Assembly (NCBI GenBank): GCA_036517395.1
Contig: DATDWN010000016.1
Location: 11,262 to 75,261 of the forward strand
Direction of reading: 5' to 3'
Length of the DNA: 64,000 nt
From: Minisyncoccota bacterium
GTDB lineage: Bacteria > Patescibacteriota > Minisyncoccia > Phycocordibacterales > DATDWN01
Under the pieces are notes generated by a model. It had not been told where the DNA came from. It saw only the letters and a list, made by a program, of their open reading frames with translations, and searched no databases. A program made the position numbers and the translations under genes. Shown piece by piece: positions 25,300-55,394 of the stretch (its first letter is position 1; each line of letters starts with the position of its first letter).

Positions 25300-25440
25300 A
25301 TATCCGCACACTAACTTTGCTCTCGTTGCATTCAGTCTCAAAATATAGATGTATATCTTAGATTTAGATATAATTTCTAACTTTTGCTTGATTGTTAATG
25401 TGGCAACAGGGAGACAAGAGCAAAGTTAGTGTGCGGATAA
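25300..25440. repeat. family A MITE-like element, copy 1 (TIR TATCCGCACACTAACTTTGCTCT), abuts dnaX ATG
   Basis: Terminal inverted repeats; right end GTGTGCGGATAAATATG includes the dnaX start codon. Confidence 0.8.
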
Positions 25441-25442
25441 AT

Positions 25443-26462
25443 ATGTCAGAAGCTCTCTATCGAAAATACAGGCCGAAAAAGTTTGGCGATGTCATCGGTC
25501 AGGATCACATCGTCAAGGTCCTAGAAGCCGAGGTCAAGTCGGGAGACATCTCTCATGCTTATCTTTTTTCTGGTACTCGAGGAACGGGCAAGACCTCTGT
25601 AGCTAGGATTTTTGCAAGCGGAATCGGAACATCACCAAACGATATTTATGAAATCGACGCGGCTTCAAATACTTCGGTTGAGGATGTTCGGGCGTTGAAC
25701 GAGTCAGTTTTCACGTTACCCTTTGAATCAAAATACAAAGTCTATATATTGGACGAGGTCCATATGCTTTCCAAGTCGGCTTCAAACGCTTTGCTTAAAA
25801 CTCTGGAGGAGCCACCAACTCATGTGGTTTTTATTCTTGCCACCACGGAAACCCACAAGATTTTGGAAACTATTTTTTCTCGATGTGAGGTTTACGCTTT
25901 CAAAAAGCCTTCTCAAGAAATTTTGAAGAAAGTTGCAATGGCAACGGCCAAAAAAGAAGGATATGGAATCGACGAGCCTTCAGCCGAGATCATCGCACTT
26001 CTCGGTGACGGCTCTTTCAGGGATACACTGGGGATTGTTCAGAAGATTTTAGCATACTCCCAAAGTAAGAAAATATCCGAAGAAGAGGTTCGTCTGGTTA
26101 CTGGTGCTCCGGCAATCGAACTGGTCCATGGCGTGGTCTCTGCCATTGCCGAAAAAGATTTACTCAGCGGTTTAACTGTTGTAAAAAAAGCAGTTAGTCA
26201 AAATATAGATATGTCCGTATTTCTAAAACTCATACTCCATACAACTCGCGCGGTTATGTTGGTGCGATTTGGCGCAGGAAACTCTGTCAAAGATGATTTG
26301 TCTGAAAAAGAGTTTGAGTTTGTTTCGGGTCTAGCCAAGACGGGCGATAATTTCTCGTCCCAAACCCTGGTCGAACTTTTGACGGCGTATGAACGCACGA
26401 CAGGTGCGTATATTTCACAACTTCCTCTTGAACTGGCGTTAGTAACCATTTGTTCTAAATAA
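25443..26462 (+). CDS. dnaX: DNA polymerase III gamma/tau subunit (short form)
   Basis: 'YRPKKFGDVIGQDHIV', 'GTRGTGKTSVARIFA', 'ILDEVHMLS', 'FILATTE'. The ATG is fused to the MITE terminal repeat. Confidence 0.85.
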   Translation: MSEALYRKYRPKKFGDVIGQDHIVKVLEAEVKSGDISHAYLFSGTRGTGKTSVARIFASGIGTSPNDIYEIDAASNTSVEDVRALNESVFTLPFESKYKVYILDEVHMLSKSASNALLKTLEEPPTHVVFILATTETHKILETIFSRCEVYAFKKPSQEILKKVAMATAKKEGYGIDEPSAEIIALLGDGSFRDTLGIVQKILAYSQSKKISEEEVRLVTGAPAIELVHGVVSAIAEKDLLSGLTVVKKAVSQNIDMSVFLKLILHTTRAVMLVRFGAGNSVKDDLSEKEFEFVSGLAKTGDNFSSQTLVELLTAYERTTGAYISQLPLELALVTICSK

Positions 26463-27629
26463 ATGAAACAACGGCAAAAGTTTAACAAATACAGACCATC
26501 CATATCATTTATTTTTGTTATGTGTGTTTTTATTGTCTCTATTATTTTATATAAAGTTGTTAAAGTTCCAAGGCAACTAGAATTTGTTAGTTTTGCAACA
26601 ACTCCATATCCAGTTCAATACTCGGATGAGCATATTACAGAAAACGCCATAGCTACGGCGCCAAAGTTTCGACAGATAACATTTGCTAATAACGTAAATC
26701 AGTTTGCAAATATCATAAGTTCCATAAATAAAAACAGTGATGTCATAAAATCCGAAGGTCCAGAAAACGGCACATGGTTGTGGACTCCGATTCTTTCTAT
26801 TACTCCACAATACAGAAAAACGATAATATCTAACGCAAAAAACAGGGGAATAAAAAACATTTATATTTCTATTGATTCTTATTTGGATATATATGTTATG
26901 CCTGATGGTTCAGAGAAAATTGCTAAGAAAAAAGCTTTTGATGCTGTGCTTGCGGCGTTTATACAACTTGCAAATAAAAACGGCATAAGTGTTGACGCCG
27001 AGGCTGGTTGGCGAAACTGGGCCGAGGATGGTAATACATACAAAGCTTTTGCTACCGTTAACTATGCTATTGAGTTCAATAAAAACCACCAAACCAAACT
27101 GCGAGGTTTTCAGTATGATGTCGAGCCGTATCTGCTAGATAGGTACAAAAAAGAAAAGGCAGATGTCCTTGTAAGTTTTATAAAACTTGTTGACCAGACG
27201 GTCTCTCAGCTTTCGGATAGCGATTTGCAGTTCATGGTAGTTATTCCAGAGTTTTATGATAAATCAAGTGGCTCACCAAAATTTGTCTACAAAAATGTCT
27301 CAGGGTTTGCCATTGATCACTTGCTTTCAGTGCTAGATCAGAGAGAGGGAAGTAAAATAATTATCATGTCGTATCGCAATTGGAGTCTTGGCGAGGACAG
27401 CTCGGTGGAAATTTCTCAAGACGAGATTAGGACGGCTGATTCTCACCAGACTAAAATAGTAGTGGCTCAGGAAACGGGCGATGTTATGCCATCATACGTC
27501 ACATTTCACAACACTTCTCGAGCTTATCTCAAAAGCCAGACCACCAATATCCAAAAAGCATTTGCAAAAAATAAAAGTTTTGGCGGCTTGGCTGTGCACT
27601 ACATAAATGCGTTCATGGAGCTGAAATGA
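26463..27629 (+). CDS. membrane-anchored hypothetical protein
   Basis: 388-aa ORF with an N-terminal TM helix; no motif recognised. Confidence 0.45.
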   Translation: MKQRQKFNKYRPSISFIFVMCVFIVSIILYKVVKVPRQLEFVSFATTPYPVQYSDEHITENAIATAPKFRQITFANNVNQFANIISSINKNSDVIKSEGPENGTWLWTPILSITPQYRKTIISNAKNRGIKNIYISIDSYLDIYVMPDGSEKIAKKKAFDAVLAAFIQLANKNGISVDAEAGWRNWAEDGNTYKAFATVNYAIEFNKNHQTKLRGFQYDVEPYLLDRYKKEKADVLVSFIKLVDQTVSQLSDSDLQFMVVIPEFYDKSSGSPKFVYKNVSGFAIDHLLSVLDQREGSKIIIMSYRNWSLGEDSSVEISQDEIRTADSHQTKIVVAQETGDVMPSYVTFHNTSRAYLKSQTTNIQKAFAKNKSFGGLAVHYINAFMELK

Positions 27630-27682
27630 TTAATGGAATTGAGTCAGGTGGAATTTACAAATAGGCAGATAGGGCGGTTCCT

Positions 27683-27714
27683 CTTGATACCCACTTAACT
27701 TACGCGGTCGCGAG
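27683..27714. repeat. 32-bp hairpin, left partner of inverted pair flanking the PaaX-like gene
   Basis: CACTTAA-CTTACGCGGTCGCGAGAT-TTAAGTG is the reverse complement of 28329-28360 (1-2 mismatches). Confidence 0.7.
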
Positions 27715-27743
27715 ATTTAAGTGGAGGTGATAATATTTCATAT

Positions 27744-28319
27744 ATGGGGAATATCGAAATTAAATCTCGCAAAAGAAAGTCAAGAAAGGATATTCAGAAA
27801 GCTATTCTCACTTCTGTCAAAATGGCGGGATTGTTAAGTATTGCGCTTGTCGCTCCAAATGCTGTTCAATGCTTAAAATCATTTGGTCTGCTTTCAGGAA
27901 GGAGACAAGAAGAAATCATGAATAGATCTAGAGAAAATCTTATTAGAGATGGTCTTTTGAAATATGAAAAAGGATTTCTCGAATTGACCAATAAAGGCCA
28001 AACTCGTCTAGACTTTTTGGAAATGAATGATTGGAAAATGAATAGACCTCGCAAATGGGATGGTAGGTGGCGGATGCTTATATTTGATATACCGGAAAGA
28101 AGAAAAGGCCTCAGGGATAAAATTCGAAACACTCTTTTAAGTATGGGATTTCTCAAACTTCAAAATAGTGCTTGGATATACCCTTATGATTGCGAAGATT
28201 TGATCAATTTACTGAAAGCGGATTTCAAAGTCGGCAAAGACCTTCTGTATCTTATTGTTGATTCCATAGAGAACGACAAGAGTTTTCGAAAATCGTTTGC
28301 TCTACCATTAGAAAAATAA
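27744..28319 (+). CDS. PaaX-like protein: N-terminal wHTH + C-terminal Cas2-like domain
   Basis: C-terminal 'WRMLIFDIPERRKGLRDKIRNTLLSMGFLKLQNSAWIY' resembles the Cas2 / PaaX central-domain fold (compare Cas2 'LVLVTYDV...RVQNSVF'); the N-terminus is wHTH-like. Confidence 0.55.
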   Translation: MGNIEIKSRKRKSRKDIQKAILTSVKMAGLLSIALVAPNAVQCLKSFGLLSGRRQEEIMNRSRENLIRDGLLKYEKGFLELTNKGQTRLDFLEMNDWKMNRPRKWDGRWRMLIFDIPERRKGLRDKIRNTLLSMGFLKLQNSAWIYPYDCEDLINLLKADFKVGKDLLYLIVDSIENDKSFRKSFALPLEK

Positions 28320-28328
28320 ATTCCAATT

Positions 28329-28360
28329 ACACTTAAATCTCGCGACCGCTAAAGTTAAGT
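28329..28360. repeat. 32-bp hairpin, right partner of the inverted pair
   Basis: CACTTAA-ATCTCGCGACCGCTAAAG-TTAAGTG; embedded in a longer palindrome CCAATTACACTTAA...TTAAGTGTAATTGG. Confidence 0.7.
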
Positions 28361-28452
28361 GTAATTGGTTATATTGATTATATACTTTATTTAAGAAAAT
28401 AAATGGAAAATAAAGTCTAAATGTGTTATAAATTAGAGCGTTGATCGAATAT

Positions 28453-28526
28453 TGCCCGATCGTCTAATGGTAGGACACTAGGTTTTGGTCCTAGGTATCG
28501 TGGTTCGAGTCCATGTCGGGCAGCCA
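28453..28526 (+). tRNA. tRNA-Gln (anticodon UUG)
   Basis: U1-A72 acceptor TGCCCGA/TCGGGCA, D-arm GTCT-AATGGTA-GGAC, anticodon arm CTAGG-TTTTGGT-CCTAG, T-arm CGTGG-TTCGAGT-CCATG, CCA encoded. Confidence 0.75.
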
Positions 28527-28636
28527 AAGTTTAGAGAGTTCACAACTCAGACATAATACAAATTATAAGTGATATACTTTAGGTATTATTCACTAACATA
28601 ATTACTACTATAGATGTATAGATATAGTAGAATGAT

Positions 28637-29029
28637 ATGAAAACATACGAGTGGTACCAAACTCTATCAAAGCCGATGTGGGCTCCGCCAACGTGGCTGT
28701 TTGCTCCAGTATGGACAGCTCTTTATACAATAATCGCAATATCATATGGATATGTCGGTTATCTATTTTTTGCCAAGAAGATTTCTTTTATCATAGTTTT
28801 GCCATTTGTTCTCAATCTAATATTCAACTTCGCTTTTACTCCGATACAATTTGGTTTGCAAAATAATTTTCTTGCGGCGCTTGATATTCTTCTAGTTCTT
28901 GGAACTTTGGTGTGGGCGCTGGTTGCTGTCTATCCACATGTAAAATGGGTTACATATGTAAACATTCCATATTTAGTTTGGGTTTTGTTTGCTACTGTAC
29001 TTCAGCTCACCATAACTTTTACCAATTAA
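28637..29029 (+). CDS. TspO/MBR-like tryptophan-rich membrane protein
   Basis: 'WYQTLSKPMWAPPTWLFAPVWTALY' matches the TspO signature; 4-5 TM. Confidence 0.6.
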   Translation: MKTYEWYQTLSKPMWAPPTWLFAPVWTALYTIIAISYGYVGYLFFAKKISFIIVLPFVLNLIFNFAFTPIQFGLQNNFLAALDILLVLGTLVWALVAVYPHVKWVTYVNIPYLVWVLFATVLQLTITFTN

Positions 29030-29317
29030 CTCACACAATATGAAAGGATATATTGCAAATATTGAAAAACTAATATGGCAAAACACTTAATTCAAAAGAG
29101 TTTTTAGAAAGTTGGTCAAATAGAAAATAAAATAATTGATTACTTGACTGTTTAAGGCTTTACTCATACCTCTTGCCGTGCCCCAGCCATGGCAAATGTT
29201 CTGTAAGTACGAATGAAGAAGCCCCGTCCGTTGCCTAGCGCGTCGTCCAGAGGCTTTTTTCATATAAAAGCCCAACTGATTTGAAAAAGGTTTTATAAAA
29301 TGTTAGATTAGTTTTAT

Positions 29318-29854
29318 ATGGGACTTGATGCTCCAAAAAGTAATGAAATGTTTGCTGGTAATAACTGGGAGTTGCCTACTGATATACATTTAGTTGATTC
29401 AGCCGCTGATGCATTTGTTGACAGGCTTGTTGAAGCAGGATGGGACAGAGAGTCTGACAATGTTTTTTATTTGCAAATTGCATTTCGAGAAGCTCTTGCA
29501 AATGCTATTGCTCATGGAAATTTAGGAGTTGCAATGCCCGAGAACAGTGATCAAACCATTAGCCAAATAGCAGAAGCGGAACAAGAAAGAAACCCTAGTG
29601 AAAAAAAAGTTCACGTTGATATTGAAGTTGATGATAGAAAGGTTTCTGTGACTATTACTGATGAGGGTACAGGGTTTGACTTTGAAAACCCACCAAATGT
29701 GGCGGAGGGAGAGAAAGCGCTACAGGCCAGTGGTAGAGGGATTATGGTCATGAAAGGATCATTTGATTCTGTTGCCTATAGTAAGGAGGCTGGAGGAGGA
29801 ACAAGAGTGACAATGACTAAAGAGAGACAGGAGGAATCAGCAATTTCTGCATAA
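29318..29854 (+). CDS. anti-sigma regulatory factor-like HATPase_c (RsbW/SpoIIAB family)
   Basis: 'EALANAIAHGN', 'DEGTGFD', 'GRGIMVMKGSFDSVAY' GHKL-ATPase motifs in a 178-aa protein. Confidence 0.6.
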   Translation: MGLDAPKSNEMFAGNNWELPTDIHLVDSAADAFVDRLVEAGWDRESDNVFYLQIAFREALANAIAHGNLGVAMPENSDQTISQIAEAEQERNPSEKKVHVDIEVDDRKVSVTITDEGTGFDFENPPNVAEGEKALQASGRGIMVMKGSFDSVAYSKEAGGGTRVTMTKERQEESAISA

Positions 29855-29858
29855 TGAC

Positions 29859-30311: not shown

Positions 30312-30312
30312 T

Positions 30313-31440
30313 ATGAATGAGACCCGTACATATTATCGAAACAAAGTTGTTTCCAATTTGTACAGAAATCTTCTCAAACCAGTTTTTTTTCACAATGACC
30401 CGGAGTTTGTTCATGATTGCATGACAGGATTTGGTGCTTTTTTGGGTCGCTATACTTTGGGGCAGAGAATGACAAAAAGTTTTTTTGATTATGAAAATTC
30501 GGCTTTAATACAGGATGTGCTAGGTATTAGTTTCAGAAATCCCATTGGTCTCTCGGCGGGTTTTGATAAAAATGCAGAGCTTGTAGATATTTTGCCGTCT
30601 GTTGGGTTTGGTTTTGCTGAAATCGGCTCTATCACCGGAAACCCGTGTTTAGGAAATGCTAAACCTCGACTGTGGCGTTTGCCAAAATCCAAAAGTCTCC
30701 TCGTTTATTATGGTTTAAAAAATGACGGCTGTGTGGCTATCGCAGAAAAACTGCATGATAAGTTTTTTACCATCCCGATGGGCATGAGTATTGCCATGAC
30801 GAATTGCGAGGAGAATTTGGTTCTAGAAAATGCCATAAAAGATTACGCAAAAGCTTTTGCCACTATGGAGCCTTTTGGTAACTACATAACTATAAATATT
30901 AGTTGTCCGAATGCTCTCGGTGGTCAGCCCTTTATTGCTCCAGACAAACTTGAACACTTATTGGACACTTTAGACAAGATTCCTAGTCAAAAACCAATTT
31001 TTATTAAACTCTCCCCTGATCTCAGTAATGCAGAGTTAGACGCTCTTCTTGATGTTGCTCGTCGTCACAGGGTTCACGGTATTATTTGCACAAACTTGAG
31101 CAAAAAAAGAGACAATCCAAAAATCATCGACGCTGGTATACCTTCAAAGGGTGGTTTCAGTGGCAAAGTAGTTCAACAGCTTTCTGATGACATGCTCTCT
31201 TATATTTACAAAAAAGAGGGACAGAGATTTATTCTTGTTGGCTGTGGCGGAGTTTTCACGGCGGAAGATGCTTACAAAAAAATCCGGCTTGGAGCATCTC
31301 TTGTCCAGTTGATTACCGGAATGATTTTTGAAGGCCCACAGGTCATAAGCCAGATTAATCAAGGCCTTGCGGAACTGTTAAAACGAGATGGTTTTGCCAA
31401 TATTAAAGAGGCTGTTGGTGTGGATTCATCCACACACTAA
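30313..31440 (+). CDS. pyrD: dihydroorotate dehydrogenase (quinone, class 2)
   Basis: 'GLSAGFDKNAE', 'GFAEIGSIT', 'ITINISCPN', 'GCGGVFTAEDAYKKIRLGASLVQL'. The last 4 codons and stop lie in the MITE repeat. Confidence 0.9.
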   Translation: MNETRTYYRNKVVSNLYRNLLKPVFFHNDPEFVHDCMTGFGAFLGRYTLGQRMTKSFFDYENSALIQDVLGISFRNPIGLSAGFDKNAELVDILPSVGFGFAEIGSITGNPCLGNAKPRLWRLPKSKSLLVYYGLKNDGCVAIAEKLHDKFFTIPMGMSIAMTNCEENLVLENAIKDYAKAFATMEPFGNYITINISCPNALGGQPFIAPDKLEHLLDTLDKIPSQKPIFIKLSPDLSNAELDALLDVARRHRVHGIICTNLSKKRDNPKIIDAGIPSKGGFSGKVVQQLSDDMLSYIYKKEGQRFILVGCGGVFTAEDAYKKIRLGASLVQLITGMIFEGPQVISQINQGLAELLKRDGFANIKEAVGVDSSTH

Positions 31441-31500
31441 CTTTGGTATTGTGTATTTTCAAAACGTGGTGAAGTAATGTAAAAGTTAGTGTGTGGATAA
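31428..31500. repeat. family A element, copy 2 (short, ~73 bp)
   Basis: ATCCACACACTAA...TTAGTGTGTGGATAA; the left TIR provides the pyrD stop codon. Confidence 0.75.
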
Positions 31501-31553
31501 GTATGTCTAGACTCAGGTATATAATATAGCGGTTATTATCTAACTAAAATATT

Positions 31554-32348: not shown

Positions 32349-32379
32349 ATCCAAGTTTTTTGTTATACTCGTTTCTATT

Positions 32380-42030: not shown

Positions 42031-42438
42031 ATGGATATGGATATAGACGAGGAAGAATTAAAAAATAAACTTACGCCAGAGGAGTATGCGGTTTTGAGAG
42101 AAAAGGGAACAGAAACTCCATTTAGCGGAAAGCTTTTACACGATGATAGAAATGGAATGTATAAATGCAAAGTCTGCGGCGCTTCACTTTTTTCATCCGA
42201 TGCCAAGTTTGATTCTGGTACCGGTTGGCCAAGTTTTGATCAGGCCATTCCCGGAAGTGTCAAAGAAGTGAAGGATGACACCCTCGGAATGAGTCGTATA
42301 GAAGTGGTTTGCGCAAAATGTAACTCTCATCTCGGTCACTTATTTGATGACGGTCCAACTAAAACTGGAAAAAGATATTGCTTGAACTCCGTCTGCCTTG
42401 ATTTATCTGCGACGAGAGAGGAGCGCGTGAATGTGTAA
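42031..42438 (+). CDS. msrB: peptide methionine sulfoxide reductase B
   Basis: 'CKVCGASLF', 'CAKCNSHLGHLFDDGP', 'RYCLNS'. The last ~10 codons extend into the 140-bp repeat. Confidence 0.9.
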   Translation: MDMDIDEEELKNKLTPEEYAVLREKGTETPFSGKLLHDDRNGMYKCKVCGASLFSSDAKFDSGTGWPSFDQAIPGSVKEVKDDTLGMSRIEVVCAKCNSHLGHLFDDGPTKTGKRYCLNSVCLDLSATREERVNV

Positions 42439-42590
42439 TCACATTCACAGCGTCCGAACGAGGAGTAACAATGGTAAAAACCCCGCCCCTCTGGGGCGGA
42501 ACAGGGGTCCAGGGCTTGCCATGGGGTTTCATACCATTGATCCGCACACTAATTCTGCCATGGTCCTGTTTTGAAATAATCCTAAAATAA
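42403..42590. repeat. 140-bp structured repeat (family C), copy 2, after msrB; mini-ORF 42471-42590
   Basis: Two substitutions versus copy 1; the one inside the mini-ORF is synonymous (CCC to CCA). Confidence 0.8.
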
Positions 42591-42677
42591 ATATCCATAA
42601 AATTTATTACAGTATATTGTTACAAATTCTGAAATTTAGTCAGGACAAAAAACAATGGCAGATTTAGTGTGCGGATG
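42541..42677. repeat. family A element, copy 3
   Basis: TCCGCACACTAATTCTGCCATGGTCCTG ... CAGGACAAAAAACAATGGCAGATTTAGTGTGCGGATG. Confidence 0.8.
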
Positions 42678-43262: not shown

Positions 43263-43401
43263 TTATCCGCACACTAAATATGCCATCGTCCTGTTTTTAA
43301 ATAATATAAAAATAAATATCTTCTAATTTATCACAGTATATTGTTACAAATTATAAAACTAAGTCAGGACAAAAAACAATGGCAGAATTAGTGTTCGGAT
43401 G
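43263..43401. repeat. family A element, copy 4 (same orientation as copy 3, ~85% identical)
   Basis: TTATCCGCACACTAAATATGCCATCGTCCTG ... GGCAGAATTAGTGTTCGGATG. Confidence 0.8.
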
Positions 43402-43483: not shown

Positions 43484-44710
43484 TTACTTGTCGGTGCCGG
43501 TCCGAGCCGTCAGCGCCTTGGAACGGCGCTGACGCTTCGGAGTGACCGACATGTTGAACGAGGAGCCCGTCATCGTGATCATACCGGTCGCTTCGTCCAC
43601 CGTGAAGTGGGCGCCGCGATCGAACGTGATGACCCGATCGCCGATGGTGACCGTGGACCGACCCTCCGTCTCCGCTCCCGCACGAATGCGGGCGACGGCG
43701 ATTGAGGGGTGGGGAAGCGCCTGAGGTGCGGGTTGAACCGGTTCCGGTGCGGGCACCGCGACGGCGCGGGCCGTGAACGTGAATCCACTGAGACCCCCGC
43801 CGTAGAAGACGGGGTTCATGCATCCCTGAAGCGACATGAGCTCAGGCTCGCTGCCGTCGGGGAAGTGGAATCGTGCCCTGTACCCGGGTTGCGGTGGGTT
43901 GATCCGGCGCGGACGGGCGCGGTCGGCGTAACCGACCATGCCCTCCCCCGAGATCATACCTTCCTCGACTGGTCCGATGCGTCGGATGTTCTGGCGAACC
44001 GTGGCGGCTTCTGCACCGGGTGTCGCGCGAATGTACTGCGCGACCGCCTGGTCCTGGAAGTGGTTCGTCAAACGCTCCGTCTCCGTCGGCGTGATGCCGC
44101 CGACAACGATTGGAGGACCAGACGTGACCGGATTCTGCTCCAGCTCACGACCCCAGTGTTCACGGGCGTTCTCCTCGCGCTCCCTCGCCATCGCCGCATC
44201 ATGTCGTCTTGCGATGTAATCGCGAAGGAACCAGAGTGCGATGAATGTGACGGCGCCCAGCAGAAGCAGTAGGGAGAACCACAGATAGTTATCGTACCTG
44301 CTCGCCGATGCAGTCGCCGTGGTGCTTTCGGGCTTCTTCTCCTCGGCCGCCTTGACCACGTGGGTCTCGGGCGGGGGAGGTGTCGCCGCCTCGTTCGTGA
44401 TGAACTCGTTCACCGCCATGCCGGCGGGAACACACAACACGTCACCACGCGAATCGTACAGCCATGCGATGGTGTCCTTGCCCTTGCCTGACACCCGGGC
44501 TTGAAGCCCCGGGTTCGTGGCGAGTAGCATATTCCACTTGGGTCCGTATTTCTGGTACAACACGTCGCCGTGCTGGACCGTATAGACGGTTCCGTTGTAG
44601 ATCGCTTTGCAGTTGGTCGCGGTGAGCGGCGTGATGCGGTTGATCGTCTGCGCCGCGGCCGTGACGGCCGAGAGCGCGAGAACGATCGCGAGAGACGTGA
44701 TACGTTTCAT
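43484..44710 (-). CDS. high-GC LysM domain protein with signal peptide and central TM (foreign origin)
   Basis: ~65% GC versus an AT-rich flank; LysM 'YTVQHGDVLYQKYGPKWNMLLATNPGL'; signal 'MKRITSLAIVLALSAVTAAAQ'; TM 'LWFSLLLLLGAVTFIALWF'. Confidence 0.7.
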   Translation of the reverse strand: MKRITSLAIVLALSAVTAAAQTINRITPLTATNCKAIYNGTVYTVQHGDVLYQKYGPKWNMLLATNPGLQARVSGKGKDTIAWLYDSRGDVLCVPAGMAVNEFITNEAATPPPPETHVVKAAEEKKPESTTATASASRYDNYLWFSLLLLLGAVTFIALWFLRDYIARRHDAAMAREREENAREHWGRELEQNPVTSGPPIVVGGITPTETERLTNHFQDQAVAQYIRATPGAEAATVRQNIRRIGPVEEGMISGEGMVGYADRARPRRINPPQPGYRARFHFPDGSEPELMSLQGCMNPVFYGGGLSGFTFTARAVAVPAPEPVQPAPQALPHPSIAVARIRAGAETEGRSTVTIGDRVITFDRGAHFTVDEATGMITMTGSSFNMSVTPKRQRRSKALTARTGTDK

Positions 44711-46472: not shown

Positions 46473-46493
46473 TTGTGATACAATAGTCGGATG

Positions 46494-47254: not shown

Positions 47255-48350
47255 TAAAGTTGTCTCTATCAGTGATTATCTCAATAAGCTAAATAGTACT
47301 CTGAGAGGGGAGAAAGCTAAAATCGTCGGTGAAGTTTCTGAGCTGAAAATGTATGAGGGCAAGAGCTATTTGTTTTTCTCTCTTCGTGATAAAAAAGATC
47401 AGAGTGTCATAAACTGTATAATGTGGAAGAGAGATTTTGTTATTTCTGGTGTGGAATTGCGAGACGGTTTGGAAGTTATCATCAGCGCCTATCCTGAGGT
47501 GTACAAACCGAGCGGTCGCATGACTTTCAAGGTGGAGGCAGTTGAGCTTGTGGGCGAAGGAGCTCTGCAGATCGCATATGAGAAACTAAAAAAGAAACTG
47601 GAAATAGAGGGACTTTTTGCTGAGGAGAGAAAAAGATTACTGCCACAATACCCGCATAAGATAGGAGTGATAACATCGAAAAGCGGAGCGGTCATAAACG
47701 ATTTTCTCTCAAACATAGGCAAATTTGGCTACGAGATTTTATTTGTGGATTCTCGTGTAGAAGGCGTTGAGGCAATAAAAGATTTGTTGTCGGCGGTTGA
47801 AACTCTGAAAAAAAGTGATATAGATGTTCTGGTTATAATGCGGGGAGGCGGCTCTCTGGAATCTTTTCTTTCTTTCAACAACGAGACTCTAGTGCGGGCC
47901 GTGGCGGATTTCCCCGTACCAGTTTTAACAGGCATTGGCCATGACAAAGACATACCGCTAGTCTCTCTGGTTTCAGATAAAAATGTTTCTACGCCCACGG
48001 CCGTAGCCAATCTTTTGAACTCTAGCTGGATTGAAGCCGTGGTTGAGGTCAGGATCTCAGAAGAAAAGATCATGAGACATTTTAGTGCGCTATTGGATGT
48101 GTTCCATCGCGCCGAAGAGACCATGCTCCGGGCGATGGACAGAATAGAGTCAGGAATAAAAGGAGTTTCTGATCTTTTAAAACATTCAGAAAGAGTTATC
48201 CTCTTAGGCAGTCCAGAGCGGATTATCTCCAGTGGTTATAGTATTGTGCGTCTGGGTGGAAAAATATTGAGGAGCATAAAAAAAGTGAGAGAGGGGGACA
48301 ATCTTGATATTCTGGTTTCAGACGGTATAATCAAATCACAAGTAACATGA
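47247..48350 (+). CDS. xseA: exodeoxyribonuclease VII large subunit (short form)
   Basis: N-terminal OB fold 'ISDYLNKLNSTL...KIVGEVSE', catalytic 'VITSKSGAVINDF', 'RGGGSLE'. Confidence 0.8.
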   Translation: MTNKVVSISDYLNKLNSTLRGEKAKIVGEVSELKMYEGKSYLFFSLRDKKDQSVINCIMWKRDFVISGVELRDGLEVIISAYPEVYKPSGRMTFKVEAVELVGEGALQIAYEKLKKKLEIEGLFAEERKRLLPQYPHKIGVITSKSGAVINDFLSNIGKFGYEILFVDSRVEGVEAIKDLLSAVETLKKSDIDVLVIMRGGGSLESFLSFNNETLVRAVADFPVPVLTGIGHDKDIPLVSLVSDKNVSTPTAVANLLNSSWIEAVVEVRISEEKIMRHFSALLDVFHRAEETMLRAMDRIESGIKGVSDLLKHSERVILLGSPERIISSGYSIVRLGGKILRSIKKVREGDNLDILVSDGIIKSQVT

Positions 48351-48373
48351 CTAAATCAAAGCCATCTCAAACA

Positions 48374-48450
48374 AACCCGCACACTAAAATTGGCATCGTC
48401 GGGATTACCGACAGTACAAAACATAATGCCAATATTAGTGTGCGGGTAAA
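48374..48450. repeat. family A element, copy 5 (short) in the xseA-xseB junction
   Basis: AACCCGCACACTAAAATTGGCAT...ATGCCAATATTAGTGTGCGGGTAAAC. Confidence 0.75.
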
Positions 48451-48628
48451 CATAAACGACACTTTAAAGAAACTAGCTAAAATAGTGGACTGGTTTGAAT
48501 CCCAAAACGAACTGGATGTGGAAAAAGGTTTGGAATATGTAAAAGAAGGAGCCACTCTCATAAAAGCCTCACGCCAAAGACTTTCCGAAATAGAAAACGA
48601 ATTCAAGGAGATAAAGAAAACGATTTAG
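48440..48628 (+). CDS. xseB: exodeoxyribonuclease VII small subunit
   Basis: 'LKKLAKIVDWFESQNELDVEKGLEYVKEGATLIKASRQRLSEIENE' XseB helix pair. The preferred start is GTG at 48440 inside the MITE repeat (the track ORF from 48347 includes the repeat). Confidence 0.65.
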   Translation: MRVNINDTLKKLAKIVDWFESQNELDVEKGLEYVKEGATLIKASRQRLSEIENEFKEIKKTI

Positions 48629-48634
48629 CCTTTT

Positions 48635-49426: not shown

Positions 49427-49428
49427 AA

Positions 49429-49571
49429 TTTATCCGCACACTAACTTCTGTCTCGTTACCTGTGCAATGTATTAAAAGTTTATATAATTCTATTCCGCTA
49501 ATAATTATTATACCATGACAAATCTATAACAGGTAACAAAATGCACAAGATAGAAGTTAGTGTGCGGACAG
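49429..49571. repeat. family A element, copy 6, abuts LOG start (minus strand)
   Basis: Reverse complement of the left end reads GTGTGCGGATAAATTATG, which is the LOG start. Confidence 0.8.
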
Positions 49572-49603
49572 GTTATACTTTTTTGACCGAGTGTTTGCAA
49601 TTT

Positions 49604-50353
49604 TTACAACCCAACACTTTTCAAAAATACATTCAACTCCTCTCCAACTATTTCTCGGTAAGTGTTTTGAGCGATTTTTCCCAGTTCTATATTTTGAACA
49701 CGAACTCTTCGAAGATCTCGAACAGTGTACCCAAGCTTCTCGGTCATTCTTCTCAACTGGCGATTCTTGCCTTCAGTTAGCACAATGCTGAAAAAATTTT
49801 CCGACAGCTTTTTCACTATTGCCGGTTTAGTCACCCCATCTCCAATGTTCACCCCATCTTGCATGTGTTTCAGAAATGCCGGTGTAAATTTTCTATCAAC
49901 TTCTACAATATATTCTTTCTCATGATCATGCGCGGGGTTGAGAAGTCGGTCGGTTATCCTACCGTCGTTTGTCATAATCAATAGCCCGTAAGACTCCTTG
50001 TCCAGTCTCCCAACAGGGAACACCCCTGCGGGGAACTTTGCGCTCTGCATTATTCCTTTCTCTTTTTCTTGAGGGTTTGTACTGACTACCCCTCTCGGTT
50101 TGTTGTAGGCCAGATAAATGAGCTTCTTTTTTGTATGCACTCCTCTGATTTCCACATTGTCGCTTTCCATAACTTTATCACCGAGGATTGCCACTCGTCC
50201 GTTTATTAGAACCTTCTTACTTTTTATAAGCTCATCCACTCCCGTGCGAGTGGCTACGCCTTTGTGGGCGAGGTATTTATTTATCCGCACACCAACTCTG
50301 GCATCGCTTTTTGTGTTCTGGCTTAGTTTTGTAGCGTATTTTTTATTTTTCAT
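49604..50353 (-). CDS. rluB: rRNA pseudouridine synthase (RsuA/RluB family, S4 + catalytic domain)
   Basis: S4 'RINKYLAHKGVATRTGVDELI', catalytic 'PVGRLDKESYGLLIMTNDG'. The N-terminal ~24 codons lie inside a MITE copy, so the true start is uncertain. Confidence 0.8.
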   Translation of the reverse strand: MKNKKYATKLSQNTKSDARVGVRINKYLAHKGVATRTGVDELIKSKKVLINGRVAILGDKVMESDNVEIRGVHTKKKLIYLAYNKPRGVVSTNPQEKEKGIMQSAKFPAGVFPVGRLDKESYGLLIMTNDGRITDRLLNPAHDHEKEYIVEVDRKFTPAFLKHMQDGVNIGDGVTKPAIVKKLSENFFSIVLTEGKNRQLRRMTEKLGYTVRDLRRVRVQNIELGKIAQNTYREIVGEELNVFLKSVGL

Positions 50354-50424
50354 AAATTGATTTCAAGGGATAATTTTAGTTAAAAAGCAGAACAATGCTA
50401 GAGTTGGTGTGCGGGTTTATCCTC
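50281..50424. repeat. family A element, copy 7, contains the rluB 5' end
   Basis: TTATCCGCACACCAACTCTGGCATCGC ... GCTAGAGTTGGTGTGCGGGTTTATCC. Confidence 0.75.
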
Positions 50425-50443
50425 ATGGGATATGCATCCATAT

Positions 50444-50577
50444 TTACCCACACACTAAATCTGCCATTGTTTTGTCCTGGTTCTGTCTATAATCTGCTAT
50501 TATACATTATAGTAGATTTGTAAGTGTTGTATAATATTATAAAAAAAGGACGATGGCAGAATTAGTGTGTGGGTTTA
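50444..50577. repeat. family A element, copy 8 (tandem with copy 7, upstream of the FKBP gene)
   Basis: TTTACCCACACACTAAATCTGCCATTGTTTTGTCCTGG ... GACGATGGCAGAATTAGTGTGTGGGTTTAC. Confidence 0.75.
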
Positions 50578-50608
50578 CAATATATATTACCCATAATATA
50601 ATACAAGG

Positions 50609-51067
50609 ATGAAAACACTAAAAAAAGAAGAGTGGGTGGCGGTTATTATCGCTGTTTTTGTCGTCGGTTTTGTATTTATATTTGGTCAGGGTTTAATGTC
50701 GATATTTAATAATAAAAAATTAGGAACTAGCATGACCCAAGCACCAAAAGTTTTGATACAAGATGAGGTATTTGGCACAGGGGAAATGGCGGCAGTGGGT
50801 GATCGTGTCATTGTGAACTATGTTGGACATTTTGTTGATGGTAGAGTTTTCGATAGCTCCCTCGCTCGTAACGAGCCATTCCAGTTTGTTCTGGGTGTAG
50901 GTCAGGTCATAAAGGGATGGGATGAGGGTATAGTCGGTATGCGAGTTGGTGGAAAGAGGCTTCTCCAAATACCTTCGAGCCTTGGTTATGGGGTTAATGA
51001 TTACGGTCCGATTCCGGGCGGCTCGACATTGATTTTTGAAGTGGAGCTTTTGAAAGTGGAGAAGTAA
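50609..51067 (+). CDS. FKBP-type peptidyl-prolyl cis-trans isomerase (membrane-anchored)
   Basis: 'VNYVGHFVDGRVFDSS...FVLGVGQVIKGWDEGIVGM...GSTLIFEVELLKV'. Confidence 0.85.
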   Translation: MKTLKKEEWVAVIIAVFVVGFVFIFGQGLMSIFNNKKLGTSMTQAPKVLIQDEVFGTGEMAAVGDRVIVNYVGHFVDGRVFDSSLARNEPFQFVLGVGQVIKGWDEGIVGMRVGGKRLLQIPSSLGYGVNDYGPIPGGSTLIFEVELLKVEK

Positions 51068-51134
51068 ACTCTACCTGACTCTTTAAACAAAAAAGTCTTA
51101 AAATAAGGGCTTTTTTGTTGTCCACAAAATCTGC

Positions 51135-51163
51135 TTGACAGCATAGACATAGTATGCTAAGCT
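51135..51163 (+). promoter_or_regulatory. near-consensus sigma-70 promoter (TTGACA-17-TGcTAAGCT, extended -10)
   Basis: TTGACA at 51135-51140, 17-nt spacer, TG at -15/-14, TAAGCT at 51158-51163. Confidence 0.55.
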
Positions 51164-51169
51164 ATACAT

Positions 51170-51576
51170 CAGGAAGGGTGCCTGATCAATAGAGCATCCG
51201 AGGGGACAACGTTGCAGGGGCGAAAAAAAAGAAAGGTCCATTTTTTCAGCGTCAGTCCCGAGGAGGCCAGATTGGCTTGATGTTTCTAGGGCATCAAACG
51301 GGTGAGAAGAGCTAGACTTCTGCCCGGAGCCAGTCTGATGGTTGTGTGGCCGCCTCAATGTTTCACACTCGGCGGGGGGTTATCCCGCTTAAATACATCC
51401 AGGCAGTTACGTTCATGTTGCCTAAGTGCCATGTATGTAACACCCGTCAGAGCGGAAGCGTTTATTGCTTTCGCCGAGGACAACCTGTTTAGTTAGAGGG
51501 GTAGAGGGCCGACGAAAAACTAGCCGCCGACTCTCTCACCCAATCACGCGCCGATCCCTCTGGGCTCGGCGTTTTG
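51170..51576 (+). ncRNA. candidate structured RNA (~400 nt) or long cis-regulatory leader of tgt; class undetermined
   Basis: GC-enriched relative to flanks; starts downstream of the promoter; ends in hairpin GCCGATCCCTCTGGGCTCGGC plus a T-run, 47 nt before the tgt ATG; no convincing ORF. Confidence 0.4.
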
Positions 51577-51622
51577 CATTATAAAAATTTCTTTTTTTAT
51601 GCATAAATGCTAATCTGGTTTA

Positions 51623-52909
51623 GTGAAATCTTTTTCTTTTGATATACATTCTGAACTTCCAAATTCTCTCGGACGAGTTGGTACAATACACACTCCACAT
51701 GGTGACATACAAACACCGGCATTTGTCGCAGTTGGAACAAAAGGCACGGTAAAAAGTTTGACGCCGGAACAGGTCGCAGATACTGGCACACAAGTCATAA
51801 TCGCAAATACATATCATTTATATTTAGAGCCCGGAGACGAAAAGATAAAAAATATTGGAGGGTTGCACAAAGCGATGAACTGGTCTGATCCTCTTATGAC
51901 CGACTCTGGCGGCTTCCAAGTTTTTTCTCTAGGTGTCGCATATGGCAAAAAGATTAGCAAAGTTTCAAAAAAAGATGAACTAATACTATCCAAGCCTCTC
52001 CCTATGTCCGACATAGGGAGATTTGCGGAAACAAGACTTCAACAAGATGAGGCAGTACCAAAGATTGCTCGAATTGATTCCAATGGGGTAATGTTCCGCG
52101 ATCATATATCGGGCAGCGCTCACTATTTTACTCCGGAAAAATCGATAGAGATTCAGCACAATCTCGGCGCAGATATTATTTTTGCCTTTGACGAATGCAC
52201 CTCACCTCATGAGTCGCTTCATTATCAGAAAGAAGCGCTTGAGAGAACTCACCGCTGGGCTCGACGTTCTCTTGAACATCATTCCGACATTCTCAAGAAT
52301 GTCGGAATGAATGGCCCTGCGATTTTTGGCATTGTGCAGGGCGGGCGAGATGAAACCTTGCGTAAAGAAAGTGCAAAATATATGGCAGATTTAAGGGCCG
52401 GAGGTCCTGAACGAAGCGAAGGATTCGACGGTTTCGGAATAGGCGGATCATTTGAAAAAGAAGATATGAGCAAGGCAGTAGAATGGTGCAATCAGATTTT
52501 GCCAAGAGAGAAGCCAAGGCATCTGCTTGGTATCGGCGAGCCAACCGATTTATTTATGGCGGTTGAGTTCGGGTGTGATTTGTTTGACTGTGTTTCACCC
52601 ACTCGTATCGCTCGAAACGGCGGAGTTTATACAAAAGAAGGAAGAGTCAATTTACTGAATCAAGAATTTCGAGAAGATTCAAAACCTCTCGACCAAGGTT
52701 GTCTCTGCTACACATGCAAAAACTTTTCGTGCGCTTATGTTGCACATCTCTTTCATGCAAAAGAAATTTTGGCTTATACGCTGGCATCAATACACAACCT
52801 TTATTTTATAACTCACATGGTGGATGGTATGCGCGAGACTATGCAAAGCGGGGATTTTGAAAGCTACAAAAAAGATTTTTTAAGTAAATACTACAGGACT
52901 AATTTGTGA
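51623..52909 (+). CDS. tgt: queuine tRNA-ribosyltransferase
   Basis: 'LMTDSGGFQVFSL', 'DCVSPTRIARNGG', Zn site 'CLCYTCKNF...H'; carries a 30-bp palindromic segment at 52290-52319. Confidence 0.9.
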   Translation: MKSFSFDIHSELPNSLGRVGTIHTPHGDIQTPAFVAVGTKGTVKSLTPEQVADTGTQVIIANTYHLYLEPGDEKIKNIGGLHKAMNWSDPLMTDSGGFQVFSLGVAYGKKISKVSKKDELILSKPLPMSDIGRFAETRLQQDEAVPKIARIDSNGVMFRDHISGSAHYFTPEKSIEIQHNLGADIIFAFDECTSPHESLHYQKEALERTHRWARRSLEHHSDILKNVGMNGPAIFGIVQGGRDETLRKESAKYMADLRAGGPERSEGFDGFGIGGSFEKEDMSKAVEWCNQILPREKPRHLLGIGEPTDLFMAVEFGCDLFDCVSPTRIARNGGVYTKEGRVNLLNQEFREDSKPLDQGCLCYTCKNFSCAYVAHLFHAKEILAYTLASIHNLYFITHMVDGMRETMQSGDFESYKKDFLSKYYRTNL

Positions 52910-52921
52910 TATATTAGGCGA

Positions 52922-55021
52922 ATGCAGTTTAAAATACACAGGGAGTTCGAGCCCGCGGGGGATCAGCCCAAAGCTATTGAAGCATTAGTTGATGGAGTAA
53001 AAAAAGGTCTGAAACATCAGACACTTTTTGGTGTGACTGGATCCGGTAAAACTTTCACGGTAGCAAACGTCATACAAGAAATCCAAAAACCAACTCTGGT
53101 CATCGCCCACAACAAAACTCTAGCCGCTCAGCTGGCTCAGGAATATCGCGAATTTTTCCCGAACAACGCCGTGCATTATTTTGTTTCTTATTACGACTAC
53201 TACCAACCCGAGGCCTACATGCCCGTCTCTGACACATATATAGAGAAGGAAGCAATGATAAATGAGGAGATTGAGAGACTTCGTCACGCTTCGACGCAGG
53301 CTCTTCTCACACGAAAGGATGTTATCATCGTCGCCTCAGTTTCTTGCATCTATGGCCTCGGTTCTCCCGTCGAATATGAAAAAGTAAATATGAAAATAGC
53401 CGTGGGACAGGAAATTTCTCGGGCGGAATTTATCAGAAGTTTAGTTGATGTCCATTTTGAGAGGACTAGCGCAGATCTTTCGTCGGGACAATTTCGAGCC
53501 ATAGGGAACATGTTAGAAATTATGCCGATTTCAGAAAAAAATATTTACCGTATTGAAATCGAGGCCGGCAACCACAGTACCAGAGCAAAGCTCGGTACGG
53601 GGCATAGAATAAAACAAATATTGGAAATTGACTCGATTACTCGAAGTATAGTAAGAGAAGTCAGCGCATTTTTTCTTTTTCCCGCCAAACATTTCATTTC
53701 CACGAAAGAGCAAAACGAAAGAGCCTTCAAATCTATCAAAGCGGAACTGACCGAGCGACTAAAAGAATTAGAAAAAGAAGGCAAGTTGCTCGAAGCGGAA
53801 AGGCTGAAGAGACGCACGACTTATGACTTGGCTCTTATCCGCGAGATGGGATATTGCAACGGCATAGAAAACTACTCTCGGCATTTTTCTGGGAAGATGG
53901 CGGGAGAAGCGCCTGACACTTTGCTTTCATATTTTCCCCACAAGGCCGACGGTTCGGCAGATTTTTTGACGATTATCGATGAGTCTCACGTTACGGTTCC
54001 GCAAATAGGTGCTATGTATGGAGGGGATTCATCTCGAAAACAGTCGCTTGTTGATTTCGGATTTCGATTACCAAGCGCAAAAGACAACAGGCCTTTGAAA
54101 TTTAAAGAGTTTGAAGAGAGGATGGGACAGTGTATATATACGAGCGCCACCCCGAATGATTATGAAAGAGAACACTCACAGCAGACCGTGGAGCAGGTTA
54201 TACGACCGACGGGTCTTATTGATCCAGTTGTTGAGGTTCGACCAATAGTATCCTCCCCGAGGTCTGACCTTGGGAAATTAGATGTTAAAGGTCAGACCTC
54301 TGGAATTCCGTATCCGGGTCAAATAAAAGATTTCATACAAGAATCCGAGAAAGCCATAAAAAAAGGTGGGAGGGTTATAGCCACAACTCTAACTAAAAAG
54401 ATGGCAGAAGATTTAAGCGAATATTTGAAAGAGGGGAATATTAAAGCGGAATATTTGCACAGTGATATAAAAACAATACAGCGCATTGAGATACTGACAG
54501 CTTTTCGTCGCGGTGAATTTGATATTTTAGTCGGAGTGAATTTGCTTCGAGAAGGTTTGGATTTGCCGGAGGTGACGCTTATTGGTATTTTGGAAGCGGA
54601 TAAAGAAGGATTTCTACGAAGCGAAACTTCTCTTATACAAATTATAGGTCGTGCGGCGCGAAATGTAGATGGAAAAGTCATTTTGTACGCCGATCACATG
54701 ACCGGTTCGATGGAGTATGCCATAAACGAGACAAACCGCAGACGCGCTCTGCAAGTGGACTACAACACAAAACACGGTATCACTCCGAAAACTATAATAA
54801 AAAAGATTCAGGACATAACCGACCAGATGAAGACAGAACATGCGAAAACTGTGAGCGATTTACTCGAAATTGATAAAAAACTATTTGAAAAAGATCCACA
54901 GAAATTGATAAAGCAAAAAGAAAAACAAATGGAGGGAGCTGTGAAAATCTTGGACTTTGAGACGGCCGCTATCTTGCGTGACGAGGTTTTGGAATTACAG
55001 AGGTTACTTGGAAAAAAATGA
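52922..55021 (+). CDS. uvrB: excinuclease ABC subunit B
   Basis: 'GDQPKAI', 'GVTGSGKTFT', helicase motifs, C-terminal UvrB/C interaction 'AAILRDEVLELQ'. Confidence 0.95.
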   Translation: MQFKIHREFEPAGDQPKAIEALVDGVKKGLKHQTLFGVTGSGKTFTVANVIQEIQKPTLVIAHNKTLAAQLAQEYREFFPNNAVHYFVSYYDYYQPEAYMPVSDTYIEKEAMINEEIERLRHASTQALLTRKDVIIVASVSCIYGLGSPVEYEKVNMKIAVGQEISRAEFIRSLVDVHFERTSADLSSGQFRAIGNMLEIMPISEKNIYRIEIEAGNHSTRAKLGTGHRIKQILEIDSITRSIVREVSAFFLFPAKHFISTKEQNERAFKSIKAELTERLKELEKEGKLLEAERLKRRTTYDLALIREMGYCNGIENYSRHFSGKMAGEAPDTLLSYFPHKADGSADFLTIIDESHVTVPQIGAMYGGDSSRKQSLVDFGFRLPSAKDNRPLKFKEFEERMGQCIYTSATPNDYEREHSQQTVEQVIRPTGLIDPVVEVRPIVSSPRSDLGKLDVKGQTSGIPYPGQIKDFIQESEKAIKKGGRVIATTLTKKMAEDLSEYLKEGNIKAEYLHSDIKTIQRIEILTAFRRGEFDILVGVNLLREGLDLPEVTLIGILEADKEGFLRSETSLIQIIGRAARNVDGKVILYADHMTGSMEYAINETNRRRALQVDYNTKHGITPKTIIKKIQDITDQMKTEHAKTVSDLLEIDKKLFEKDPQKLIKQKEKQMEGAVKILDFETAAILRDEVLELQRLLGKK

Positions 55022-55050
55022 TTTTATGATATTCTGTGTGAGGAGGGGTT

Positions 55051-55152
55051 ATGATGCACATTCTCGCCTGGGCATTTGTGCCGGTGCTTGTGATTCTGGT
55101 TTTCGGGTCTGTGCTGAATCTCAGCACAACCAAGATCACCAAGCGCTGAATA
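55051..55152 (+). CDS. 33-aa GC-rich hydrophobic mini-ORF with strong SD (MMHILAWAFVPVLVILVFGSVLNLSTTKITSAE)
   Basis: AGGAGG 4-5 nt upstream; single TM helix; followed by hairpin GGCGGGTC-GACCA-GACCCGCC and a T-rich tail. Confidence 0.4.
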
Positions 55153-55162
55153 GGTTTTGAGG

Positions 55163-55200
55163 CGGCGGGTCGACCAGACCCGCCGTTCGTCGTATTTGTG
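55163..55200 (+). terminator. intrinsic terminator-like hairpin after the mini-ORF
   Basis: 8-bp GC stem followed by TTCGTCGTATTTGTGTG. Confidence 0.45.
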
Positions 55201-55252
55201 TGTTTGTGGTAAGATATTGTCCTCACCCAATAGGCAGTCGGGGAGTTTATTT

Positions 55253-55394
55253 GCATGTCCGCACACCAACTTTGGCATTGTCTCTTTGTTGCTAGGTTAG
55301 GAATTACATCAAATTTTAGATGTATATCTATATATGGATGTATGTATAAACTCTGAGACAGGGCAATGATGCCAAAGTTGGTGTGCGGATAAAT
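55253..55394. repeat. family A element, copy 9, abuts uvrA ATG
   Basis: CATGTCCGCACACCAACTTTGGCATTGTCTC ... GATGCCAAAGTTGGTGTGCGGATAAATATG. Confidence 0.8.

Follow-up and report, generated by a model that had tools for sequence, protein, structure and literature searches.

Several groups of bacteria carry short palindromic repeats that are dispersed through their genomes. Correia elements of Neisseria (CREE/NEMIS) are about 100-155 bp long, have long terminal inverted repeats, occur in hundreds of intergenic copies, often beside genes, and form long hairpins in RNA; shorter, internally deleted variants exist as well. Rickettsia palindromic elements (RPE), palindromes of about 100-150 bp in reduced genomes, can lie in frame within protein-coding genes and be translated. 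The enterobacterial ERIC/IRU repeats, imperfect palindromes of 127 bp, and the Nezha-type miniature inverted-repeat transposable elements (MITEs) of cyanobacteria are dispersed hairpins of about 125-135 bp in or near transcribed regions, with a broad host group and patchy copy number. Here we analyze a comparable repeat family in 64,000 nt of DNA from a Minisyncoccota bacterium (contig DATDWN010000016.1 of assembly GCA_036517395.1, positions 11,262 to 75,261; this whole stretch is called the window in the following). An earlier reading of the bare letters, the sequence-only reading, had described nine copies and interpreted them as a mobile cassette of promoter, 5'-untranslated region (5'-UTR) and start codon. 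Our results indicate that the repeats are probably copies of a non-autonomous DNA transposon, i.e. a MITE, of Patescibacteria, the candidate phyla radiation (CPR). In the literature, which we covered incompletely so that an earlier description is possible, we found no account of MITEs or similar repeats from CPR bacteria, and the family is apparently undescribed so far.

The CPR element differs from each of these systems. Correia elements duplicate the dinucleotide TA, whereas the CPR element duplicates 4 bp at YWWR, and is unrelated in sequence and host phylum; neither promoter boxes nor a binding site for integration host factor could be demonstrated in it. We know of no report of co-varying arms or swapped sub-terminal segments for Correia elements. 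The analogy to Correia elements drawn in the sequence-only reading therefore holds for the way of working but not for family membership, which was rejected based on the termini (CCGCACACYAA), the 4-bp YWWR duplication and the Patescibacteria hosts. As in RPE, one copy is translated within a gene (copy 5 in xseB, conserved in locus L107; L-numbers denote loci throughout), but most CPR copies are intergenic and have clear terminal repeats and a target duplication, and neither sequence nor host is related. Compared to ERIC/IRU and Nezha-type elements, termini and target site are different, and an 11-nt end that is invariant across much deeper lineages as well as a register-shifted sub-terminal pairing are peculiar to the CPR element.

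Nine copies of an inverted-repeat element

When the window was searched with the 12-mer TCCGCACACTAA, allowing up to two mismatches, 18 matches to this terminal motif were obtained, compared to 3.8 expected from shuffled sequences, and none of 100 shuffles reached 18. The matches form nine facing pairs, all located between 25.3 and 55.4 kb. A covariance model trained on 103 copies, six from the window and the rest from other genomes, recovered the same nine loci in the 64 kb and no additional ones (Table 1). The proposed nine-copy family was thereby borne out, with measured lengths of 127-136 bp (seven copies) and 69-71 bp (two copies) instead of the 73-145 bp given before. Folding, which had been suggested as a check, yielded strong hairpins for all five copies folded, with z = -7 to -10 relative to dinucleotide shuffles. 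In pairwise comparisons, the window copies are 64-75% identical, with the exception of copies 3 and 4 (87%), which are the two direct copies already noticed around a DoxX-like gene. The neighboring genes had been named correctly and comprise dnaX, quinone-dependent pyrD, the DoxX-like gene, xseA/xseB, a TIGR00730/LOG-type gene (LOG), the gene of an RluF/RluB-type pseudouridine synthase (rluF), FKBP, uvrB and uvrA. Of the two neighboring copies that had been placed in the divergent rluB/FKBP region, copy 8 is indeed found there, but copy 7 lies within rluF itself.

Table 1. Copies of the element in the window, with coordinates of the whole stretch; bits are covariance-model scores and z refers to folding.
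Copy	Position	Form	Site	Score
1	25303-25437	full length, 135 bp, T...A termini	TATACT -10 box upstream, dnaX ATG (25443) downstream; flanks TATA / TAAA	100 bits; z = -8.6
2	31429-31497	degenerate short form of 69 bp; each arm with CCACACAC core		54 bits
3	42541-42675	full length	upstream of DoxX-like gene	
4	43266-43399	full length	downstream of DoxX-like gene, same orientation as copy 3	
5	48376-48446	short form, 71 bp	inside xseB (ORF 48347-48628)	
6	49433-49568	full length	between rluF stop and LOG start	
7	50284-50415	full length	within rluF, codon 3/4	
8	50447-50573	full length, C...G termini; each arm with CCACACAC core	divergent rluF/FKBP promoter region	
9	55258-55389	full length	conserved uvrA 5' leader on one side, uvrA ATG (55395) on the other	102 bits; z = -10.1

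Structure of the element

The structure was derived from 121 non-redundant full-length copies. Full copies are tightly confined to 129-136 nt across the family, and copies of approximately 70 bp also occur. Each end consists of a terminal Y, the invariant sequence CCGCACAC-Y-AA and nine variable positions, and the terminal Y is opposite an R at the other end in 97% of the copies. An inverted repeat had thus been recognized correctly in the sequence-only reading, but the part given there as TTTGCCAT..TCCTG is copy-specific, and invariance is limited to CCGCACAC-Y-AA. Over 21 positions, the two arms are complementary and form a near-perfect stem of 21 bp, in which 97.7% of the cells are paired over 103 copies and 13 of the 21 pairs show changes on both sides. 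With one arm taken as complement, the variable parts of the two arms agree at 93% of positions within a copy, compared to 57% between different copies.

Just beyond the stem, at position 21, the arms are mismatched in 92% of the copies. They are followed by two segments of 5-7 nt that occur in swapped order in the two arms, with an offset of ±8 nt, so that the order on a single strand is S-X-Y-centre-X'-Y'-S'. The relations X/X' and Y/Y' are copy-specific: each is present in 57-58% of the copies, compared to 14-16% with permuted partners, and both occur together in 45%, compared to 6%. We infer that the X:X' and Y:Y' helices are alternative extensions of the stem, shifted by 8 nt, which do not both form inside the closed stem. 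A pseudoknot with both helices within the stem was rejected on geometric grounds rather than by computation, as the linkers between X and Y measure only 1-4 nt. The centre of the element is AT-rich and not conserved. The open reading frames (ORFs) of the element are short chance ones without coding capacity for a transposase, and Rfam contained no match at gathering or E-value thresholds, with sub-threshold matches only to generic hairpins of plant miRNA precursors.

Two groups of copies deviate from this general pattern. In one subfamily, from metagenome-assembled genomes (MAGs) labelled Saccharibacteria, Kaiserbacteria or Patescibacteria, an ORF of 30-31 codons (MN...SLDLSRQELRQN*) ends at the TAG of the terminal repeat and the flanking duplication provides an ATG 10 nt downstream. 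This ORF is intact in 10 of 13 copies (L001, L021, L038, L045, L046, L052, L062, L084, L093 and L100). A small protein encoded by it was considered and dismissed, as its variable part is too short for significance. The elements at L026, L055, L067 and L102, found in MAGs labelled Moraniibacteriota and 'Bdellovibrionales', have the same CCGCACAC ends and a different interior, and several are flanked by TTGAC(A)-like direct repeats; they may represent a distinct subfamily.

Target duplications and empty sites

Copies with C...G termini are flanked by a duplicated tetranucleotide: the left positions -5 to -2 equal the right positions +2 to +5 in 78-80% of these copies, compared to about 42% with permuted partners. 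The duplicated tetranucleotides are diverse (e.g. CATA, CAAG, TAAA, CAAA, TCAA) and yield the target consensus YWWR with a duplication of 4 bp. In the window, copy 7 has a perfect TTTA duplication at 50280-50283 and 50416-50419, and copy 8 one at 50443-50446 and 50574-50577.

For comparison of orthologous sites, we used 80 metagenome loci encoding RluF relatives (50-77% identity), together 670 kb. The gene order uvrA-uvrB-TGT-FKBP-rluF-LOG-xseB-xseA is kept in about a dozen of the relatives. For copy 7, codon 3/4 of rluF in L114 is an exact empty site: L114 reads ATGAGAATAAATAAATACC, compared to CCCATGAGGA-TAAA-[copy 7]-TAAA-TAAATACC in the window, which additionally has the TAAA duplication. 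The spacer between rluF and LOG measures 25-50 nt in L111-L114, L118 and L124-L127 and is empty in L107 as well, while the window, L110 and L116 carry the element there. Likewise, the sites in xseB, downstream of doxX (copy 4, empty in L110) and upstream of uvrA (no element in L110, L111, L114, L118, L126 and L127) are empty in relatives. The covariance model detected 7 copies in the 670 kb of related loci versus 9 within 30 kb of the window, and the 64-75% identity among the window copies counts against a recent burst. In the window region, four further assemblies from this population show 100% identity and are therefore uninformative with respect to strain polymorphism. The comparison of orthologous loci that had been proposed as a check of mobility thus revealed both empty sites and target-site duplications, and, together with the lineage-specific expansion, supports the view of a mobile, MITE-like family.

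The copies are small and non-coding, carry terminal inverted repeats, have a target-site duplication in the case of the C...G type, and are dispersed with differences in presence and absence between relatives, which are the properties of a MITE. The element inserts at YWWR with a 4-bp duplication and has multiplied in some lineages, among them the source genome of the window, while being nearly absent from close relatives. In the mechanism that we propose, a DDE-type transposase supplied in trans would recognize the invariant CCGCACAC-Y-AA ends. The remaining stem would have to pair, with its sequence free to change.

Several observations weigh against the interpretation as a MITE. A clean duplication was not seen for copies with T...A termini, which comprise most of the window copies. 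Typically, one of their flanks is a fixed TTTA|T (TAAA when read outward) and the other a variable TNWA; the fixed flank is present at both ends in no copy, and a second copy of the target, although expected, is absent. The spacing at four leaderless promoters and at the empty doxX site fits a net gain of the element plus about 4 nt, so that the fixed tetranucleotide of T...A-type copies may have been carried along from the donor site. Moreover, presence and absence at three sites conflict with the RluF tree: at the LOG site, the window and L110 carry the element, but L107, one of the nearest relatives (76% RluF identity), does not; at the copy-8 site, it is present in the window and, in shortened form, in L107, but absent from L110; and at the rluF site, it is shared by the window and the distant L117. 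The shortened L107 copy at the copy-8 site looks like an internal-deletion derivative. This patchiness requires either recurrent insertion at the same favored sites or precise loss. Simple neutral decay would not yield near-perfect stems in copies with only 64-75% identity, indicating that something beyond plain 'junk' is operating. Finally, no parent transposon was detected in the loci and window genes covered. Terminal-repeat pairs 200-6000 bp apart and unpaired ends in 1.4 Mb of loci delivered only neighboring MITEs and no autonomous element, an all-versus-all comparison of 404 ORFs from MITE-bearing loci contained only orthologous housekeeping clusters, and a Pfam scan of about 28 of the roughly 70 window genes revealed a serine recombinase, which belongs to an unrelated island, but no DDE transposase. 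As a lead, CC...GG ends, a 4-bp AT-rich duplication and possibly precise excision, which would explain the patchiness, are reminiscent of IS1380 or piggyBac-type elements. The target of the CPR element is YWWR and not strictly TTAA, and the likeness is a resemblance only, with no transposase found.

That no classical parent insertion sequence was found in the loci searched would also be expected for a genomic palindrome that is bound by a protein and kept by a domesticated enzyme, like REP/BIME repeats with their RAYT, integron attC sites or paired DNA-uptake sequences. The deep conservation of the termini across many CPR lineages and the combination of variable stem sequence and conserved structure, as in attC sites, agree with this explanation, and GTGCGG resembles the core of the Haemophilus uptake signal, which we regard as a lead only. 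Nevertheless, we consider it highly improbable: the 4-bp duplication points to transposition with staggered cuts and not to the chemistry of tyrosine recombinases or HUH enzymes. REP/BIME repeats were rejected since they are 20-40 nt long, start with a GTAG/CGTC head and lack a duplication, while the CPR element has 130 bp, a CCGCACAC head and a duplication. For attC sites, the termini do not fit the RYYYAAC / GTTRRRY core sites, and the copies flank housekeeping genes in every orientation instead of forming same-orientation cassettes behind an integrase. Uptake sequences were excluded based on duplication, size and arrangement; an uptake sequence would need neither the fixed length of 129-136 nt nor structured sub-terminal segments.

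Placement at gene starts and gene ends

The repeat end reads GTGTGCGGATAAAT(T)ATG ahead of dnaX (ATG 25443) and uvrA (55395) as well as ahead of LOG (49426), which lies on the minus strand, and the coordinates given for these three junctions in the sequence-only reading were accurate. Three of the copies in the window terminate 5-6 nt ahead of an ATG. Only two of 71 window genes have a motif resembling a Shine-Dalgarno (SD) sequence, while TAnnnT is found 5-8 nt before the ATG in 27 of the 71 (approximately 38%), and leaderless mRNAs therefore appear to be common in the source genome. The native promoters at empty LOG sites have the form TTGCAn-N17-TACAAT-N6-ATG. Copies 1, 6 and 8 lie between a -10 box and its ATG; copy 6 was inserted 3 nt past the TATAAC -10 box of the leaderless-type LOG promoter, and its orthologue in L110 is likewise located between -10 box and ATG.

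These junctions had been the basis for the postulated cassette of promoter, 5'-UTR and start codon, which would be selected for bringing start signals to the gene behind the insertion. Besides the three copies ending close to an ATG, several element centres contain TATAAT-like boxes, a consensus promoter scanner reported matches inside copies 7 and 8, and rluF can be restarted from the GTG at the end of the repeat or from an ATG that lies in frame in the centre. However, the tally relative to gene starts that had been recommended as a check gave a different picture when it was run across the wider family, with 119 copies originating from about 48 assemblies. Of the genes next to element ends, 126 face the element with their start and 103 with their end, i.e. 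both about equally, which does not agree with a systematic fusion to start codons. The contexts were tandem in 71, divergent in 23 and convergent in 14 cases, and the polarity of the element was not linked to gene direction (36 versus 35). Hexamers resembling a -10 box were not enriched in the centres (0.92 per copy versus 1.21 in shuffles) and only marginally more frequent toward starts than toward ends (0.54 versus 0.40 per copy). Furthermore, the native promoter has been retained ahead of copies 1, 6 and 8, displaced by about 140 nt, and, by our account, the same genes are expressed without the element in most relatives. In sum, a promoter or start-codon cassette is very unlikely.

Instead, the AT-rich 6-nt spacer of leaderless promoters, the ATG itself (both YATG and CATR match YWWR) and stop codons are natural targets, and, together with the YWWR preference and the tiny intergenic spacers, would explain why copies adjoin start and stop codons. 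Judging from several empty sites, the placement at gene boundaries reflects the insertion sites that are available in compact genomes.

Insertions that patch genes

The terminal repeat carries TAA/TAG and GTG at fixed positions, and three window genes demonstrate the consequences of an insertion at or in a coding region. The ORF of pyrD extends 12 nt into copy 2 and stops at the TAA of the repeat (31438-31440), whereby the gene gains three codons (Ser-Thr-His) and a new stop, confirming that the end of pyrD is supplied by the element. In rluF, the end of copy 7 (GTG CGG ATA AAT) re-creates the codons M-R-I-N, and, as read from the codons, translation could restart at the GTG of the repeat or at an in-frame ATG in the element centre. 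In the latter case, the new start would replace the lysine-rich N-terminal extension that is found in relatives. The 5' end of this gene, called rluB in the sequence-only reading, had been placed inside a copy; the possible supply of a start codon stands, but the copy is actually inserted within the gene at codon 3/4.

In xseB, copy 5 and 4 nt of flank constitute an in-frame insertion of 75 nt or 25 codons that is read through from the native ATG at 48347. A restart at a GTG inside the repeat, previously regarded as the likely start of xseB, is thus not needed. The orthologous copy in L107 is 92% identical, and the two copies differ by one compensated exchange of an A-T for a C-G pair, in which both changes alter the protein. 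Due to the stop and GTG codons in the repeat ends and the in-frame read-through, insertions that cut gene ends are patched, which in our interpretation explains why they are tolerated.

Maintenance of the stem

The stem has kept its complementarity while its sequence changed, so that the hairpin presumably matters as such, be it in transposition or in making the element tolerable to the host. Pairing may be needed for transposition via a folded single-strand intermediate. Alternatively, it could be maintained after insertion, either because selection acts on read-through RNA or because template switching in replication 'corrects' quasi-palindromes. In co-directional contexts, G.U mismatches outnumber A.C mismatches on the sense strand by 20 to 10 (about p = 0.05, one-sided). 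Together with the compensated pair in xseB, this excess gives weak hints in favor of maintenance at the RNA level after insertion. A cut of RNase III type at the base of the stem would leave a near-leaderless 5' end a few nt before the ATG, and would thereby explain how an insertion between the -10 box and a leaderless ATG is tolerated.

It is conceivable, albeit unlikely, that the hairpin is a working part of the element and more than a landing pad for a transposase. The swapped and co-varying segments X and Y, with their two mutually exclusive stem extensions, would fit either transposition of a folded single strand, with the bulge marking strand or end, or an RNA switch or processing site by which SD-less genes of leaderless type tolerate or exploit the insertion. 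Quite unlikely is a related explanation in which the element is an RNA module that benefits the host and is also mobile, with cleavage of the stem by an RNase III-like enzyme insulating genes and generating a near-leaderless 5' end, and with selection for this role preserving the pairing. Pairing that is maintained at 25-35% divergence between copies, the compensation in xseB despite the change in the protein, the surplus of G.U mismatches and stems that end 5-6 nt before ATGs in an SD-less organism would all be in line with such a module. However, the G.U excess on the sense strand is weak, and folding energy shows no overall strand bias, for which reasons an RNA made from one strand was also rejected. 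In addition, most orthologous sites lack the element, so that no conserved need of the host is evident, and template switching during replication could keep the arms of quasi-palindromes matched without selection.

Distribution among CPR bacteria

A scan of one genome per species for the two conserved ends at a distance of 95-125 nt identified at least 106 loci from at least about 48 assemblies. Among the matches listed, nearly all were MAGs labelled as Patescibacteria/CPR, with labels that are unverified and include Saccharibacteria, Kaiser-, Zambryski-, Campbell-, Taylor- and Moranibacteria, Paceibacterota and Parcubacteria. One match in Streptomyces looks like a chance hit, and a few contigs of 'Nitrospira' and 'Bdellovibrionales' MAGs may be binning errors. 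A phage as vector was considered and discarded after a collection of viral contigs yielded zero matches to the element.

Close doublets or clusters are frequent (L001 3977-4313, L002, L023, L044, L046, L095 and L102; 50284-50573 in the window; L011 5718-7557). At L001, the second copy begins directly after the duplicated tetranucleotide of the first, and L011 contains three similar copies within 2 kb. This arrangement suggests a preference for insertion beside existing copies.

Other features of the window

A second, unrelated repeat of 140 nt is present at 20199-20338 and 42402-42541. It is GC-rich, 99% identical between the two copies and contains three internal hairpins; the first copy had no match in Rfam. 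The final 12 codons of msrB and its stop come from the second copy, whose end coincides exactly with the beginning of MITE copy 3. Beside copy 4, the segment 43400-45050 has a high GC content (47-49%) and encodes, on the minus strand, a protein of 408 amino acids (43484-44710) with a putative N-terminal signal sequence, as judged by eye. As this protein had neither a Pfam match nor a counterpart in the syntenic relatives, the segment was probably acquired.

The 5' leader of uvrA (55195-55250) lies behind an extended -10 box and consists of a small GC hairpin and a subsequent T-run (CCTCACCC...GGGGAGTTTATTT). It is present upstream of uvrA in L111, L114, L118 and L127 and could be an attenuator or regulatory leader.

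Positions 1-12000 have a low GC content (33-37%) and no MITE copies. This region contains a large serine recombinase gene (654-2486) overlapping a tRNA-Trp gene (715-786), an AAA_25 ATPase, ORFs with zinc-ribbon repeats (5.1-8.4 kb) and a LOOT RNA (4607-4729), and looks like an integrated mobile island. On the minus strand at 11596-11698, Rfam assigned a tRNA that spans 103 nt, about 32 nt more than usual, and was not reported by ARAGORN; possibly, this tRNA gene is interrupted by an insertion or intron.

Further short repeats comprise a 23-nt palindrome, ATGTCAAGGACAGTCCTTGACAC, in four copies (18922, 24711, 58433 and 58688), a palindrome of about 31-54 nt, CCCTGTAGTGAGC...GCTCTACTAC, in three copies (12757, 46478 and 60767), a 33-nt palindrome, TCATTCCGACATTCTCAAGAATGTCGGAATGA, in two copies (41986 and 52275), a 90-nt repeat with 98% identity (38717 and 41343), and arrays of GAAAATTG-like units (21436-23873 and 63087). 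Some of these families may be terminators.

Implications for CPR genomes

According to the usual description, genomes of CPR bacteria or Patescibacteria are streamlined and contain little mobile DNA. The family analyzed here has an 11-nt end that does not vary among at least about 48 assemblies at species level, and its density rises to one copy per 3 kb in the genome from which the window originates. It represents a sizeable and unannotated source of rearrangement, remodelling of gene boundaries and mis-called starts and stops in thousands of MAGs. With 140 nt of hairpin placed between a -10 box and its ATG, the insertions also constitute a natural experiment on leaderless expression. If either version of a working hairpin were true, folded-strand transposition or a function in RNA, the element would be a mechanistically new class of bacterial MITE that is shared across the CPR. 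The conserved termini provide a handle for finding the transposase, and a genetic tool for these organisms, whose manipulation is very difficult, could be developed from this enzyme.

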